Shown here piece after piece: positions 1,809-7,795 of a stretch of 25,187 nucleotides of DNA. The position numbers were made by a program, and so were the translations under genes. A model generated the notes under the pieces. The model had not been told where the DNA came from. It ran no database searches and saw only the letters and a list, made by a program, of their open reading frames with translations. Position 1 is the first letter of the stretch. Each line of letters starts with the position of its first letter. The stretch comes from Synechococcus sp. Its GTDB lineage: Bacteria > Cyanobacteriota > Cyanobacteriia > Thermostichales > PCC-7336. The DNA lies in assembly GCA_051439425.1 (NCBI GenBank), contig JBFRWD010000055.1, positions 1-25,187 on the forward strand, read 5' to 3'.

Positions 1809-3221
1809 CTAACGATTTCGAGCGACATTTTGAGTTTGGACAAAGTTTCGCGTAATGCGCATTTCCAGTGGGGTATCCGGGCCGATCTCGACGACACGGG
1901 GCGCGACCAGATTGCCGATCGCCGCTCCAGCCGCCGCCCCCACCAGCACTTCCTCAGTCGCGATCGCCCGATCCCCTGTTACTCCGGCCAAAACAGCCCC
2001 AGCCGCTGCTCCAATCGCTGCATCACCCGCGATATTCGCCGGTCGAGTTTGGCGCGGGTCTTTGATGTCTCGCAGGATGGTGGACTGAGCCGAGATCGGA
2101 AACGTACGGCCTCCAACTGTCACTCGCTCGGCCCGGAAGCGCAGCCCCCCTTCCACCGGTTCTAAGCGACCTTCAACTCGCGATCCGAATGGAATGGCCA
2201 CCTGACCGGTTTCGGAACGGACGACATCATCTGTCACTGCTGCAAAGGCGTGGGATTCTTTCGGGCTGAAATACTGGGTGCGATCGCTTCTGCTCAACGC
2301 TTGGAATCGCGTTCCGGCAACTGTGGTGTTAGTCACGCGCACCGATAGGGTTTGTTGGGAATTGGAGCGATTCGAATGATTTCTGCTTGAGTTATTCCTG
2401 TTCGAGTTATTTCTATTCACGTTATTAGAGCGGTTGGAGCGAACCATTGTGACATTCCGACTGCTCGTCGTACCGCGATTCGTCGTGGTGCTGGTGGTAC
2501 TAGTGCTCGTAGCCACCGTCCGGGTCTGAGTTCCATCCAGTGCTCCCATGCGTTGCAGGCTGCGATGGGCAAAGGCTGCGACCTCGGCACGGGTTGCGGT
2601 GCGATTGGGTTCTAGCCAATTGGGGTTGAGTGGGTTAACCGTCAAATCCATGCGTGCCGCTGTCGCCAGCCCGGTAGTGGCCCACGAGGGAACGGCATTT
2701 GCATCCCGGAACATCTGCAGCCAGCGCCCAGTGCGACTGACCGGAACGAGACGATCGTTGTTGGCCGCCTGCAGGCCATTGACCATAACCACTAATGATT
2801 GGGCTCGCGTGACGTTTTGCTCGGGCCGAAAGTAGCCTCCGGGGTAACCGGCAACCAGCCCGCTGCTGTTTGCGGCAGCAATATGACCGGCAGCCCAGTG
2901 AGAAAACGGTACATCGCGGAAGGTTTGGGTGGTGGGGCCACCTCCCAGCTCGAAGACTTGATTGGCAATGGTGGCAAATTGAGCCCGAGTAACGGGGGCA
3001 TTTGGCCGAAAACTGCCGTCGGGGAATCCCCCCAGTACTCCCATATCGGATAAATCGTCGATATAGTCTTCAGCCCAATGACCGTTGGTATCGCTAAACT
3101 CAGCAGCGTTTGCAGGGCCAGCAGCGATCGCCCCCCATGTCATCGCAGCCATGGCTAATCCTGCGGTCACGATTTTCTGAGTCAACCGTTTGGTGTAGGT
3201 GAGTCGTTTTGATTGACTCAA
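1809..3221 (-). CDS. Secreted S-layer homology (SLH) domain protein
   Basis: Signal-peptide-like segment ending GPANAA, three SLH repeats (FSDTNGHWA..GFPDGSFRPNAPVTRAQF; FRDVPFSHWA..GYPGGYFRPEQNVTRAQ; FRDANAVPSWA..LEPNRTATRAE), low-complexity T/N/S/R linker and C-terminal Gly/Ala-zipper. Start uncertain: TTG 3221 preferred, ORF is open to GTG 3317. Confidence 0.85.
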   Translation of the reverse strand: MSQSKRLTYTKRLTQKIVTAGLAMAAMTWGAIAAGPANAAEFSDTNGHWAEDYIDDLSDMGVLGGFPDGSFRPNAPVTRAQFATIANQVFELGGGPTTQTFRDVPFSHWAAGHIAAANSSGLVAGYPGGYFRPEQNVTRAQSLVVMVNGLQAANNDRLVPVSRTGRWLQMFRDANAVPSWATTGLATAARMDLTVNPLNPNWLEPNRTATRAEVAAFAHRSLQRMGALDGTQTRTVATSTSTTSTTTNRGTTSSRNVTMVRSNRSNNVNRNNSNRNNSSRNHSNRSNSQQTLSVRVTNTTVAGTRFQALSRSDRTQYFSPKESHAFAAVTDDVVRSETGQVAIPFGSRVEGRLEPVEGGLRFRAERVTVGGRTFPISAQSTILRDIKDPRQTRPANIAGDAAIGAAAGAVLAGVTGDRAIATEEVLVGAAAGAAIGNLVAPRVVEIGPDTPLEMRITRNFVQTQNVARNR

Positions 3222-3481
3222 GAAGAAGACTTGGGCAACTTCAAACCAATATTGAGTAGCGCCAGATTGTTGATGCACGTGCTCTTCCTCCGATGGAATA
3301 CGGAATGAACTGTTCACATGCTGGCGAGAAATGACTGGCCATGAAAAGGGGTGAAACCCTTGAAATACGGTGTTTTTCGCCTTTGAGCGCAGAAGTCTGC
3401 GGTCGGAAGATGTCGCGATCGTAGCGACGAAGTATTTGGCCTTGCGCTCGAATTACCTACGGAGGTATGGACAGTAGAAAT

Positions 3482-3568
3482 AAAAAAATACCCAGGCGAT
3501 AGACCCGGGCAAGAGCGACATTCATGTTCCGGTTACATATAACCAATCAACTGTGAATGATTTGTGAA
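3482..3568 (-). repeat. Intergenic repeat unit copy 1, putative small RNA gene
   Basis: Minus strand: TTCACAaatcaTTCACA-gttgattggttatatgtaaccg-GAACATGAATGTCGCTCTT-GCCCGGGT ctatc GCCTGGGT-ATTTTTTT. The repeat is seen directly; sRNA status is inferred. Confidence 0.8.
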
Positions 3569-3610
3569 CGGAGAATGCATTGGAGTGAATTTAAGAATAG
3601 GGGTGCAAAT

Positions 3611-3695
3611 AGAAAAGCCCAGGTGGCTAACCCAGGCAAGAGCAACATTTATCTTCTGAGTTCATCAATTCAAAATGGTGTGAATGATTTATGAA
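3611..3695 (-). repeat. Intergenic repeat unit copy 2 (diverged), putative small RNA gene
   Basis: Minus strand: TTCATAaatcaTTCACA-ccattttgaattgatgaactca-GAAGATAAATGTTGCTCTT-GCCTGGGT tagcc ACCTGGGC-TTTTCT. Same block spacing as copies 1 and 3. Confidence 0.75.
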
Positions 3696-3797
3696 TATCT
3701 ATTCTTCTCTTTATCTGGCTTAGACAGTTGGCATCGCGGTATTCAGATGCTCGGGTCAACTGCACTGTTGAGGACTCTGACGTTTCCAAAGTGAACC

Positions 3798-3885
3798 AAA
3801 AAAAATACCCAGGCGACAAACCCGGGCAAGAGCGACATTCATGTTCCAGCTACATACAACCAATCAACTGTGAATGATTTGTGAA
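3798..3885 (-). repeat. Intergenic repeat unit copy 3, putative small RNA gene
   Basis: Minus strand: TTCACAaatcaTTCACA-gttgattggttgtatgtagctg-GAACATGAATGTCGCTCTT-GCCCGGGT ttgtc GCCTGGGT-ATTTTTTTT. Five substitutions versus copy 1 (2 in the hairpin loop, 3 in the spacer). Confidence 0.8.
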
Positions 3886-3933
3886 AAAGCCAGCCATTAT
3901 GAACTTAGGTGGCTTGAAAAGTTGAATGGCTGG
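3884..3933 (-). terminator. Possible terminator or insulating hairpin downstream of the MFS gene
   Basis: Inverted repeat CCAGCCATT...AATGGCTGG with inner AACTT/AAGTT, followed on the minus strand by CTTTTT. The loop is long, so this is uncertain. Confidence 0.4.
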
Positions 3934-3996
3934 AGTGCAGCCAATGAGCGAGTGACATCATCCCATGTCCGACTGAACCTTACTCTTGGACAACGC

Positions 3997-5187
3997 TCAT
4001 ACGCTAGCGGGTACTCGATTCTTTCCGATTGTTTGACCCCCAATCAAAGCGATCGCCACAAATACCAACACCGTGCCAGCCAGCATGGGTGACACTTGCC
4101 CCCAATTGTCATACGTCCAACCAGCCGCTAATGGACCTAAAATCTGCGTCACGCTGCTGAGGGATTGCGTTCCCCCACTCAGCTTGCCCTGTTCGTCATC
4201 CGCCACGTTATTAGCCAACAAACCGCGTAATGACGGAGATGCTATTCCAATCCCAAAGGCGAAGAGGGCTTGAGTTCCGTAGAGGAAGTAGCCGCGTGGG
4301 CTGATGGCAACCAAGATTAAGGCCAAGGACACCATACTCATGCCCGCCAACAACAGTCGCATCTCCCCAAATCGGGGCAGAAGCTTGCGAATTAATCCCC
4401 CCTGAACAATGCTGGCGACAACTCCGACAAACACCAGAATGGCCCCCGATTCTACTGGTCCCCATCCGTAGCGATCGCGAACCAACACCACAAATACATT
4501 GGTAAATCCGGCGAAGGCCATGAAGAATGCCAAGTAGCCTCCCAGCAGCGATCGCAAATTAGCCCGTCCAAATAAATTGGCAAGCTGACGCAATGGATTG
4601 AAATCCTGCAGGGTTAGTGGTGCTGTAGTGCGCACTTTTAAGGACTCTGGCAAGACACAGTAGGCCATGATTCCGTTGCAGACTGCCACCCCTCCAGCCA
4701 CAAATACCGGCAAGCGCAGGTCAATGCTGCCAAGAATGCCTCCCATCAACGGGCCGAAGATAAAACCAATTCCGGCAGCAGCTCCGATCAATCCGAAATT
4801 TTTGGTGCGGTCTTCTGGAGATTTGGACACATCGGCGATGTAAGCCTGCGCGGTACTGACCACTCCCCCTGTTAGCCCGTTTGTAATTTGAGCGGCAAAC
4901 ATGACCCATAGGGCATTGGCAATTCCGAATAGGAAAAACGCCATCGCCGTACCGAACGTGCATATGACAATGATGGGACGCCGACCGTAGCGATCGGAGA
5001 TAGCACCGAGAACGGGGGCGGCAAAAAACTGGGCAATTGCAAAACTAGCCGCCAGCAAGCCAATCGTGAAAGCGTTACTGCTGTACTGCTCGACTAAGTA
5101 AGGCAGGACGGGGAATAACAGCCCCCCACCGATCACCTCAATGATGATGGTCAACACCACTACGAATAGTGGAGAGATGGCGCTCAT
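3997..5187 (-). CDS. MFS transporter, TetA/DHA1-like drug:H+ antiporter
   Basis: 396 aa with about 12 hydrophobic segments, MFS motif A (GAISDRYGRRP) and antiporter motif C (GIGFIFGPLMGG). Confidence 0.88.
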   Translation of the reverse strand: MSAISPLFVVVLTIIIEVIGGGLLFPVLPYLVEQYSSNAFTIGLLAASFAIAQFFAAPVLGAISDRYGRRPIIVICTFGTAMAFFLFGIANALWVMFAAQITNGLTGGVVSTAQAYIADVSKSPEDRTKNFGLIGAAAGIGFIFGPLMGGILGSIDLRLPVFVAGGVAVCNGIMAYCVLPESLKVRTTAPLTLQDFNPLRQLANLFGRANLRSLLGGYLAFFMAFAGFTNVFVVLVRDRYGWGPVESGAILVFVGVVASIVQGGLIRKLLPRFGEMRLLLAGMSMVSLALILVAISPRGYFLYGTQALFAFGIGIASPSLRGLLANNVADDEQGKLSGGTQSLSSVTQILGPLAAGWTYDNWGQVSPMLAGTVLVFVAIALIGGQTIGKNRVPASV

Positions 5188-6694: not shown

Positions 6695-7795
6695 ATGAAT
6701 CCAAAACAAACTCTGGTTCTCTTCGCGTCGTTGAGTGCTGGGTTACTGATCCTGCCCGCAGGGATGGTGAAAGCGTCCGAATCCAACACCTCTTCTAGCC
6801 AGAGGCAGCCAGCGGCGATAAGTTTAGAGGGCGATCGCGTTGCAACTCTCGGTCCACTGAATACCGACGAGTCTGCCATAGAGGACTCTAGAGATTTTAT
6901 CGAGACTTGGCTGAGGACAACGATTGAGGAAGAGCAATTTGAAGAGAGAGCTGTTGAGCGGGAGGGTACCGATACTGCTGCCTCTACGGCAAACGAGGCC
7001 CCAGTAAATACGAACACGGATGCCGTGTTGGAAGCAGCACGAGGTACTGCAGAACTCAATGAGCTGTTGGGTGGAAATGATGGGCCAGCATCACTCTACG
7101 CTCACGATCTATGGGGGCACGAGGCGGCGACGGTGTATTTGGAGGGGTTGCCTTTGGTTACATTTACAGCCGCTAACAACCCATCAGCTAATCCGGAGGA
7201 CATGGCAGCTGATTTAACAGAACGTCTCAACCAGTTGGCCCAAAGCGAACCCGAGTCTTACGACATTGGCTTAATTGCGGGTGCTAACTACGCCGTTACG
7301 GTAGATGGGACTGCGGTGATTGAGATTGATGACACAGTGCAATCGACATTCCGAGATCGCGATCGCTCTGCAACTGCCACTAGCGTGGCAAATCAAATGC
7401 GCCGGACTTTACAAGGAACTTCCCCAATCGATGCTTCCGATGCCGTCGTTGTCGCTCGTGCATCTTCCGATTACACATCCAGTACCGTAACCGGAACTGT
7501 TGTTGGCACCCAGCGAGGATTGGCCTCTTGGTATGGCCCTGGGTTTGCTGGGCGCCTCAGTGCAAACGGTGAAATTTTCAATCCCGAGCACATGACAGCA
7601 GCTCATAAATATCTGCCCTTCAACACGATGGTGGAAGTGATTAATCTGATTACTGGCAGCTCGGTAGTAGTGCGGATTAACGATCGCGGCCCGTTTGTGG
7701 GAGAACGCATCATCGACCTATCGGCAGCAGCGGCTCGGTCGATTGGGTTATTACAAAGTGGTGTCGGGCCGGTTGAAATCAGGATTTTGAATTAG
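6695..7795 (+). CDS. rlpA: Septal ring lytic transglycosylase RlpA family protein
   Basis: N-terminal signal peptide and C-terminal DPBB domain GLASWYGPGFAGRLSANGE..TAAHKYLPFNT..VRINDRGPF..RIIDLS. Confidence 0.92.
   Translation: MNPKQTLVLFASLSAGLLILPAGMVKASESNTSSSQRQPAAISLEGDRVATLGPLNTDESAIEDSRDFIETWLRTTIEEEQFEERAVEREGTDTAASTANEAPVNTNTDAVLEAARGTAELNELLGGNDGPASLYAHDLWGHEAATVYLEGLPLVTFTAANNPSANPEDMAADLTERLNQLAQSEPESYDIGLIAGANYAVTVDGTAVIEIDDTVQSTFRDRDRSATATSVANQMRRTLQGTSPIDASDAVVVARASSDYTSSTVTGTVVGTQRGLASWYGPGFAGRLSANGEIFNPEHMTAAHKYLPFNTMVEVINLITGSSVVVRINDRGPFVGERIIDLSAAAARSIGLLQSGVGPVEIRILN

Follow-up and report, generated by a model that had tools for sequence, protein, structure and literature searches.

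Predicted sibling small-RNA genes, a family absent from Rfam, in marine mat or sediment cyanobacteria

The array and its units

Three related units lie in a row on the minus strand between a gene for an MFS transporter and a gene for an SLH-domain protein, in the 25-kb stretch of DNA analysed here (the window; Table 1). The window belongs to a 4.8 Mb assembly (G000) of a genus of marine mat or sediment cyanobacteria, of which the remaining genomes are here called G001, G002 and G003. A repeat search of the window returned a single family with three copies, each an 87-nt direct repeat on the minus strand; their starts are 127 and 190 nt apart. Compared with unit A, taken as the reference, unit B is 69% and unit C 94% identical. 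The genes around the array (MFS, SLH, NUDIX and AIR-synthase-like) also occur as its neighbours in the sister genomes.

Along the minus strand, a unit consists, in 5′-to-3′ order, of a 17-nt box, about 22 variable nucleotides, a core, a linker of 3–4 nt, a stem-loop and a U-run. In the units of the window the box reads TTCA(C/T)AAATCATTCACA and the core GGAACATGAATGTCGC, with AGAAGATAAATGTTGC as the core of unit B. The core pattern matches three times in the 25-kb window against 0.17 matches expected, and none out of 100 shuffles reached three. The hairpin of each unit has a GC-rich stem of 8–9 bp and a loop of 5 nt and is followed by the U-run. In a mechanical scan of positions 3200–4100, exactly three terminator-like sites were found, one per unit and all on the minus strand, where 1.1 would be expected; each combines 8–9 pairs, five of them G-C, with the 5-nt loop and the U-run expected of an intrinsic terminator. 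A preliminary description of this DNA had proposed three minus-strand units of about 87 nt between the MFS and SLH genes, built from four blocks (box, spacer of about 22 nt, core, hairpin with U-run) and separately terminated. Its coordinates are right to within 2 nt, and both the blocks and the separate termination are borne out by the present analysis.

Table 1. Coordinates of the array and of the genes on either side of it (window positions).
Feature	Position	Strand	Remarks
MFS_1 transporter gene	3997–5187	minus	DHA1-like, far below Tet cut-offs
Spacer, MFS stop codon to unit C	3886–3996	minus	
Unit C	3799–3885	minus	first unit after the MFS gene
Unit C box	3885–3869	minus	
Unit C TGn and −10-like hexamer	3862–3854	minus	TTGTAT
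Unit C core	3847–3832	minus	invariant
Unit C stem	3828–3806	minus	9 bp, 5-nt loop
Unit C U-run	3805–3798	minus	
Unit C predicted sRNA	~3847 to ~3798	minus	
Unit B	3609–3695	minus	diverged; middle unit
Unit B box	3695–3679	minus	one deviant base, at 3691
Unit B −10-like hexamer	3669–3664	minus	ATTGAT
Unit B core	3657–3642	minus	variant AGAAGAUAAAUGUUGC
Unit B stem	3637–3617	minus	8 bp
Unit B U-rich tail	3616–3609	minus	
Unit A	3482–3568	minus	last unit; SLH ORF 165 nt downstream, same strand
Unit A box	3568–3552	minus	
Unit A TGn and −10-like hexamer	3545–3537	minus	TTATAT
Unit A core	3530–3515	minus	
Unit A stem	3511–3489	minus	9 bp
Unit A U-run	3488–3482	minus	
SLH-domain protein gene	1809–3317	minus	downstream of unit A

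The spacer between the MFS gene and unit C contains a further, weak hairpin with a U-run just before the unit C box. It is not significant (z = −1.7) and could serve as the terminator of the MFS transcript. Where the SLH gene region begins, the plus strand has a weak match to CRISPR-DR10 (3321–3357; E = 0.97), which scores 16.7 bits where the gathering score is 39; as a single copy, it is taken as a chance match.

Family members and conserved parts

The family extends beyond the array. A solitary unit, D, with box, core and hairpin, is located at 95079–95165 of contig C123 of the same assembly, and a divergent paralogue, E, at 6865–6949 of contig C118 (minus strand). G000 thus carries five family members, A to E, and not the three of the preliminary description. 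A covariance model built from the units, the search suggested there, recovers the family in all four genomes of the genus: one unit in G001, three tandem units with a period of 125 nt in G002, and in G003 two units in tandem, a third that is degenerate, and counterparts of D and E. Paralogue E is found in two of the four species, G000 and G003, its counterpart in the latter being at 2428–2510 of contig C6 (L260). In G000, G003 and G001 alike, the array lies directly 3′ of the MFS orthologue; its copies number three, two (plus the remnant) and one, respectively. The SLH gene also follows the array in G003 and is missing there in G001; it is therefore not an obligatory partner of the array.

In 26 other genomes of the order the covariance model has no match, and in a sample of 31 genomes that represent other orders of the class it has a single, weak one, in G055. 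With up to one mismatch allowed, the core is present in 26 of 401 genomes of the class. Outside the genus this amounts to 23 sites in 22 genomes. None of these sites has a hairpin with U-run after it, and the core when reversed, used as a control, is about as frequent in class genomes as the core itself (around 24 matches). When metagenome contigs were scanned for core plus U-run, 14 stretches were obtained, one of them with a real unit (L241, of the G001 type). A near-match of the core on contig C73, inside a coding sequence, was discarded as chance, and an additional core site of G002, at 1234498, is without a terminator. Among the genomes searched (26 others of the order and about 370 others of the class), the family appears to be confined to one genus.

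There are also signs of variation between strains. The public runs that include window positions 2900–4500 number 14, all of them DNA. In run X11, one low-depth contig joins position 3481 to 3798, corresponding to a one-unit form, which is a weak hint of strain variation. Run X2 has the three-unit form, with the consensus base at 3691 in the box of unit B, and a third run has two units with 40 other letters between them. From these differences, copy number and spacing of the array seem to vary between strains.

Conservation was measured on 11 aligned units from the four species, all of one genus, so that identity partly reflects relatedness. Between species, identity is highest in the core (0.94) and the box (0.90), followed by the stem arms (0.82–0.85), the −10-like hexamer (0.65), the linker (0.56), the spacer (0.50), the loop (0.44) and the discriminator (0.35). 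The invariant element is the 16-nt GGAACAUGAAUGUCGC, placed at the predicted 5′ end of the RNA and identical in A, C, D and E. In minimum free energy folds of the 49-nt forms of units A and C, this 5′ part is unpaired. Downstream of it, conservation breaks down: the linker TCTT is AAT in unit D and TCAA in the G001 unit, unit D has a length change of 1 nt after the core, and the sequence 3′ of the core in paralogue E is unrelated to that of the other units. The earlier idea of a CU-rich seed beside the terminator is thus revised: the conserved element is the 16-nt core, and the CU-rich GCUCUU part is replaced in D, E and the G001 unit.

In the stem, 97.7% of the cells are paired across the 11 units. 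The variants are G-C/G-U, A-U/G-U and U-A/U-G, with one U-A/U-G/C-G series. Read from the opposite strand, 15 G-U cells would turn into A-C mismatches, which fixes the polarity of the hairpin as minus; on pairing and on polarity, the preliminary description was correct. Covariation gave less: a double compensatory change occurs in only one cell, and 292 of 500 column shuffles reach the observed value for the 11 units. As the shuffles are not exceeded and only a single double change is present, covariation alone proves little.

Paralogue E is the most informative member. In both G000 and G003, its 16-nt core is identical, and the spacing between this core and a −10-like hexamer matches that of the other units. 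Its terminator stem, CUCCACC/GGUGGAG, is unrelated to theirs, and the place of the box is taken by a conserved palindrome, GATAC-N6-GTATC, which overlaps its −10 element. The core is thus kept behind two control regions and before two terminators, a pattern expected of the functional end of an RNA. In G003, paralogue E is situated 144 nt upstream of a gene for a ZnuA/MntC-type metal-binding protein (its N-terminal sequence judged by eye). An arrangement of this kind would suit a metal-responsive repressor, although another gene lies downstream of E in G000.

The box and the predicted RNA

The box, TTCACAAAT-NN-TTCACA, consists of two 7-bp direct repeats with a period of 11 bp (TTCACA-N5-TTCACA). 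In the units of the genus it is followed by 9 nt, a hexamer T(T/C)nnAT, 6–7 nt and the core. Nine of the 11 units have the trinucleotide TGn immediately ahead of the hexamer, an arrangement known from extended −10 elements; the hexamers lack the usual A at position 2. The two TTCACA repeats are 20 and 9 bp from the hexamer, neither being a workable distance for a −35 element, and a consensus scan for sigma-70-type promoters in 3200–4100 returned none. Promoters activated by OmpR/PhoB-type regulators have direct repeats of 11-bp period that overlap the −35 region and keep a constant spacing to the −10 element. In class II promoters of the PhoB type, the −35 element gives way to a pair of 7-bp direct repeats, likewise of 11-bp period, whose end lies about 10 bp ahead of the −10 hexamer. 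The units of the window resemble these Pho boxes in repeat period and spacing, with 9 bp between box and −10; they differ in the half-site sequence and in that the exact box of the genome is found at sRNA units, not at phosphate-uptake genes.

Matches to the exact box were found 34 times in 23 of the 401 class genomes, against eight for the reversed control; seven are in G055 and three in G315, both of family f28. In 18 of 30 distinct cyanobacterial sites outside the genus, TAnnnT follows the box at exactly 9 nt, while each of the other offsets from 4 to 15 has it in none to three of these 30 sites. The 115 sites from outside the cyanobacteria are for the most part chance matches; they have TAnnnT 13 times at +9 and one to seven times elsewhere. 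Within G000, the exact box is present only at the sRNA units. It is most likely, given its recurrence before a −10-like hexamer in other cyanobacteria, that the box is promoter DNA and not part of the RNA, which revises the preliminary description. With the box as promoter DNA, the geometry of the units places the predicted start on the first bases of the core, so the RNA would extend from the core to the U-run and measure about 46–49 nt, instead of the 87 nt of the whole unit.

Near-boxes of the same genome were considered on contigs C25, C94, C111, C153 and C178, and they make up no coherent regulon. The one at C178:88261–88277 (plus strand) has intact half-sites (TTCACAAAAAATTCACA) and lies upstream of an ORF for a CheY-type receiver and an HPt-like ORF. 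These neighbours, a receiver of the CheY-only kind and an HPt protein, are not DNA-binding and were rejected as the regulator of the box; the pair could be a phosphorelay tied to the box signal. A box variant at C142:26510 (minus strand), TTCACAGGATTTTCACA, has TAGTGT exactly 9 nt downstream and precedes a 91-aa ORF and a prephenate-dehydrogenase-like gene; this site may be a further member of the regulon in the genome.

HLR1, the site of RpaB, consists of direct repeats with a 10-bp period. The box was rejected as an HLR1 site because half-site and period (11 against 10 bp) both differ. G000 does have canonical HLR1-type repeats, TTTACA/GTTACA with a period of 10, upstream of small ORFs (C30:1863, C75:36265, C157:2596, C128:263 and C77:52233); with these and its TTTACA-N4-TTTACA sites, the genome has a classical site of this type apart from the box.

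We consider it probable that the units are sibling sRNA genes, each self-contained, producing RNAs of about 46 nt and driven by a putative OmpR/PhoB-type activator. A response regulator of this type would bind the two 7-bp repeats of the box, which ends 9 bp upstream of the weak −10 hexamer and would stand in for the −35 element. Judging from the geometry, transcription should start at or beside the first G of GGAACAUGAAUGUCGC and stop at the predicted terminator, the GC-rich hairpin with its U-run, some 46–49 nt later. The single-stranded 16-nt 5′ end would then pair with mRNAs in trans; it is the likely seed because it is predicted to be single-stranded and is invariant across paralogues and species. 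Several copies with the same kind of box would mean a larger dose in response to one signal, and paralogue E, with its palindrome in place of the box, would supply this seed in response to another. With five units in G000, there are two or more paralogous genes with a common single-stranded core, as a family of sibling sRNAs should have.

Alternatively, the units might be promoter-plus-terminator cassettes acting in cis (an 'actuaton' or attenuator), in which the RNA is a by-product and the SLH or the NUDIX gene is driven by regulated read-through at the last terminator. The position of unit A relative to the same-strand SLH ORF (Table 1) is compatible with this, as is that of the single unit of G001, about 180 nt upstream of a same-strand NUDIX gene, and an actuaton arrangement is known for Yfr2c of Synechocystis, according to an excerpt of PMC6596454. 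However, cassettes of this kind leave unaccounted for both the presence of three units in a row and the invariant 16-nt core, which recurs in D and E, each standing alone elsewhere in the genome. Furthermore, unit D of G003 faces a convergent gene, and the downstream gene changes between species, which makes regulation in cis unlikely.

The 16-nt core may also be thought of as a DNA operator or a signal of the initially transcribed region, the short RNA having no function in trans. It holds an imperfect palindrome, ACAT-GA-ATGT, is partly self-complementary, and would occupy +1 to +16, a frequent position for repressors. Neither of two target scans showed the enrichment that a trans-acting seed might be expected to give. 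Ungapped complementarity to the seed was found at 408 sites, compared with 385 for the reversed seed. When duplex energies were calculated at 4003 crude ORF starts, 52 sites were at or below −20 kcal/mol, against 129–229 for five shuffled seeds, all of which gave stronger duplexes than the seed itself. Against an operator, the arms of the palindrome are only 4 bp long, and unit B and unit 1 of G002 have changes that disrupt them with no compensating change. The core is also kept behind two different upstream control regions, and the strand-specific terminator right after it fits an RNA product. We therefore regard an operator as quite unlikely.

The few candidate target sites compared at start codons are not convincingly conserved. 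A site on C162 is kept in G003, but G003 is a close relative; one at the start of a GH57-like gene varies at a pairing position; and the target region on C3 has no DNA match in the sister genomes. A 14-nt perfect complement of the core was observed inside an aquaporin/MIP-like coding sequence of G000 (C77:65876–65889). It was set aside as a candidate, its G003 orthologue pairing by way of two wobble-compatible transitions, both synonymous.

A dispersed selfish or structural DNA repeat is very unlikely, and so is a mere series of terminators behind the MFS gene. The units are repeated, contain a hairpin and differ in copy number between strains, as such elements may, but conservation is highest in the box and the core, outside the hairpin, and target duplications are not present. 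A MITE or REP-like element in particular, the alternative that the preliminary description had raised against itself, is ruled out, because there are only five copies in 4.8 Mb, at a position of the array that is syntenic across species, and without terminal inverted repeats. Tiny protein-coding genes, suggested by AUG codons at core positions 6–8 and 10–12, are hardly credible, since both AUG frames run through the terminator, leaving a terminated RNA without a stop codon, and since the 1-nt indel of D, the unrelated 3′ part of E and the loss of the first AUG in B leave no conserved reading frame.

Known families and the box module in other cyanobacteria

At gathering score, Rfam 15 has no match anywhere in the window, Yfr1 and Yfr2 included; the Rfam scan proposed at the outset thus came out in favour of a new family. 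With E values up to 10, nine matches were obtained in 3300–4050, all far below their gathering scores. The weak matches to anti-hemB, SorX and NsiR1 are mainly due to the terminator hairpin and U-run, as seen from the alignments of anti-hemB and SorX. In the literature searched, the core string was not found and the box was not linked to cyanobacterial regulation; nor did the search find a TTCACA repeat with a cyanobacterial response regulator or sRNAs of Coleofasciculus. The family is absent from Rfam and from the literature searched.

Sibling sRNAs such as Qrr and OmrA/OmrB are Hfq-dependent and experimentally established. The adjacent paralogous sRNA genes OmrA/OmrB of enterobacteria have a common 5′ seed and terminator and are subject to OmpR-type activation. 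With them, the units of the window have in common that they are adjacent paralogous genes with a likely 5′ seed, a terminator and a putative OmpR-type activator. Sequence and organism are unrelated, and the RNAs of the window are predictions from sequence.

Excerpts of PMC6596454 name NsiR1 and Yfr2 as published multicopy sRNA families of cyanobacteria. NsiR1 is described there as a head-to-tail array of sRNA genes of about 60 nt, each with its own promoter and terminator. The window likewise has direct repeats arranged head to tail, in a cyanobacterium, and each of its units ends in a predicted terminator of its own. It differs from NsiR1 (RF02399) in following an MFS gene, in having a direct-repeat box and in lacking any match of sequence or structure, the best score being 15 bits (E = 4, at 3798–3854) against a gathering score of 39. 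The genomic context of NsiR1, an array upstream of hetF in heterocyst-forming strains, was not found either, the neighbours in the window being MFS, SLH, NUDIX and AIR-synthase-like genes. Yfr2 is, in the same excerpts, a multicopy family with one to nine copies per genome in varied arrangements (PMC6596454). It is comparable in being multicopy, but has no match with E up to 10 in 3300–4050; also, Yfr2 is widespread, whereas the family of the window is found in one genus among the genomes searched.

A very small terminated sRNA of about the same size, RF02596 (cyano_het_sRNA), is described in an excerpt of PMC4734099 for Nostoc PCC 7120 (TSS 4547237r, 51 nt) from primer extension and northern blotting. 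At its cut-off of 35.7 bits, RF02596 has no match in G000 or G002 and matches one of 151 class genomes (G140), where no TTCACA repeat was found upstream. With no match in G000 or G002 and an unrelated promoter region, it is an architectural analogue only, of around 50 nt.

The box module itself, that is box, 9 nt and TAnnnT, occurs more widely. A scan of named genomes gave at least 120 stretches, mostly chance matches in AT-rich Firmicutes; among the matches listed, the window's own genus is absent and the module is found in metagenome-assembled genomes of Coleofasciculaceae and in Symplocastrum torsivum, while a contig of G055 is listed as uncultured Microcoleus. In the Coleofasciculaceae or 'Microcoleus' assemblies, the box precedes short units with hairpin and U-run and a different 5′ core, TAAGCCTTTGGAC in several of them. 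The units with this core constitute a further candidate sRNA family of about 45–60 nt plus terminator (L091, L110, L109/L165 and L180, from G055, G315 and Coleofasciculaceae assemblies), and their promoter is box + 9 nt + TAnnnT. On contig C81 of G055, two tandem box units with other bodies were observed. None of the box-led short units of other cyanobacteria has a match in Rfam.

Proteins are also encoded behind the module. G356 (L107) and G315 (L112), genomes of two different families, have it ahead of proteins of 146 and 166 aa that are homologous to each other; in two Nostoc-like genomes, G140 (L093) and G343 (L092), it precedes a conserved Cys-rich (CxxC...CxxC) peptide of 54 aa. For the 146-, 166- and 54-aa proteins, no Pfam or NCBIfam family was found. 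Tentatively, and with less than even confidence, we propose that box, 9 nt and TAnnnT mark an undescribed regulon across several cyanobacterial families (the window's genus, Coleofasciculaceae, Nostoc-like and others), which might be run by one candidate OmpR/PhoB-type regulator and have as outputs mostly lineage-specific sRNAs, often in tandem, and small proteins.

The array of the window belongs to a well-delimited family of predicted sibling small-RNA genes that is new to Rfam and of a familiar kind (NsiR1, Yfr2, Qrr, OmrA/B). Its anatomy is unusually legible, with a predicted 16-nt 5′ seed kept behind two promoters and before two terminators. Of all the findings, the promoter module that recurs across families most deserves further work. 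If the proposed regulon is real, a conserved signalling input would be coupled to riboregulator outputs that are reinvented in each lineage. The fixed distance of 9 nt between box and −10 element in distant cyanobacterial families points to a conserved, as yet unnamed transcription factor and its regulon.
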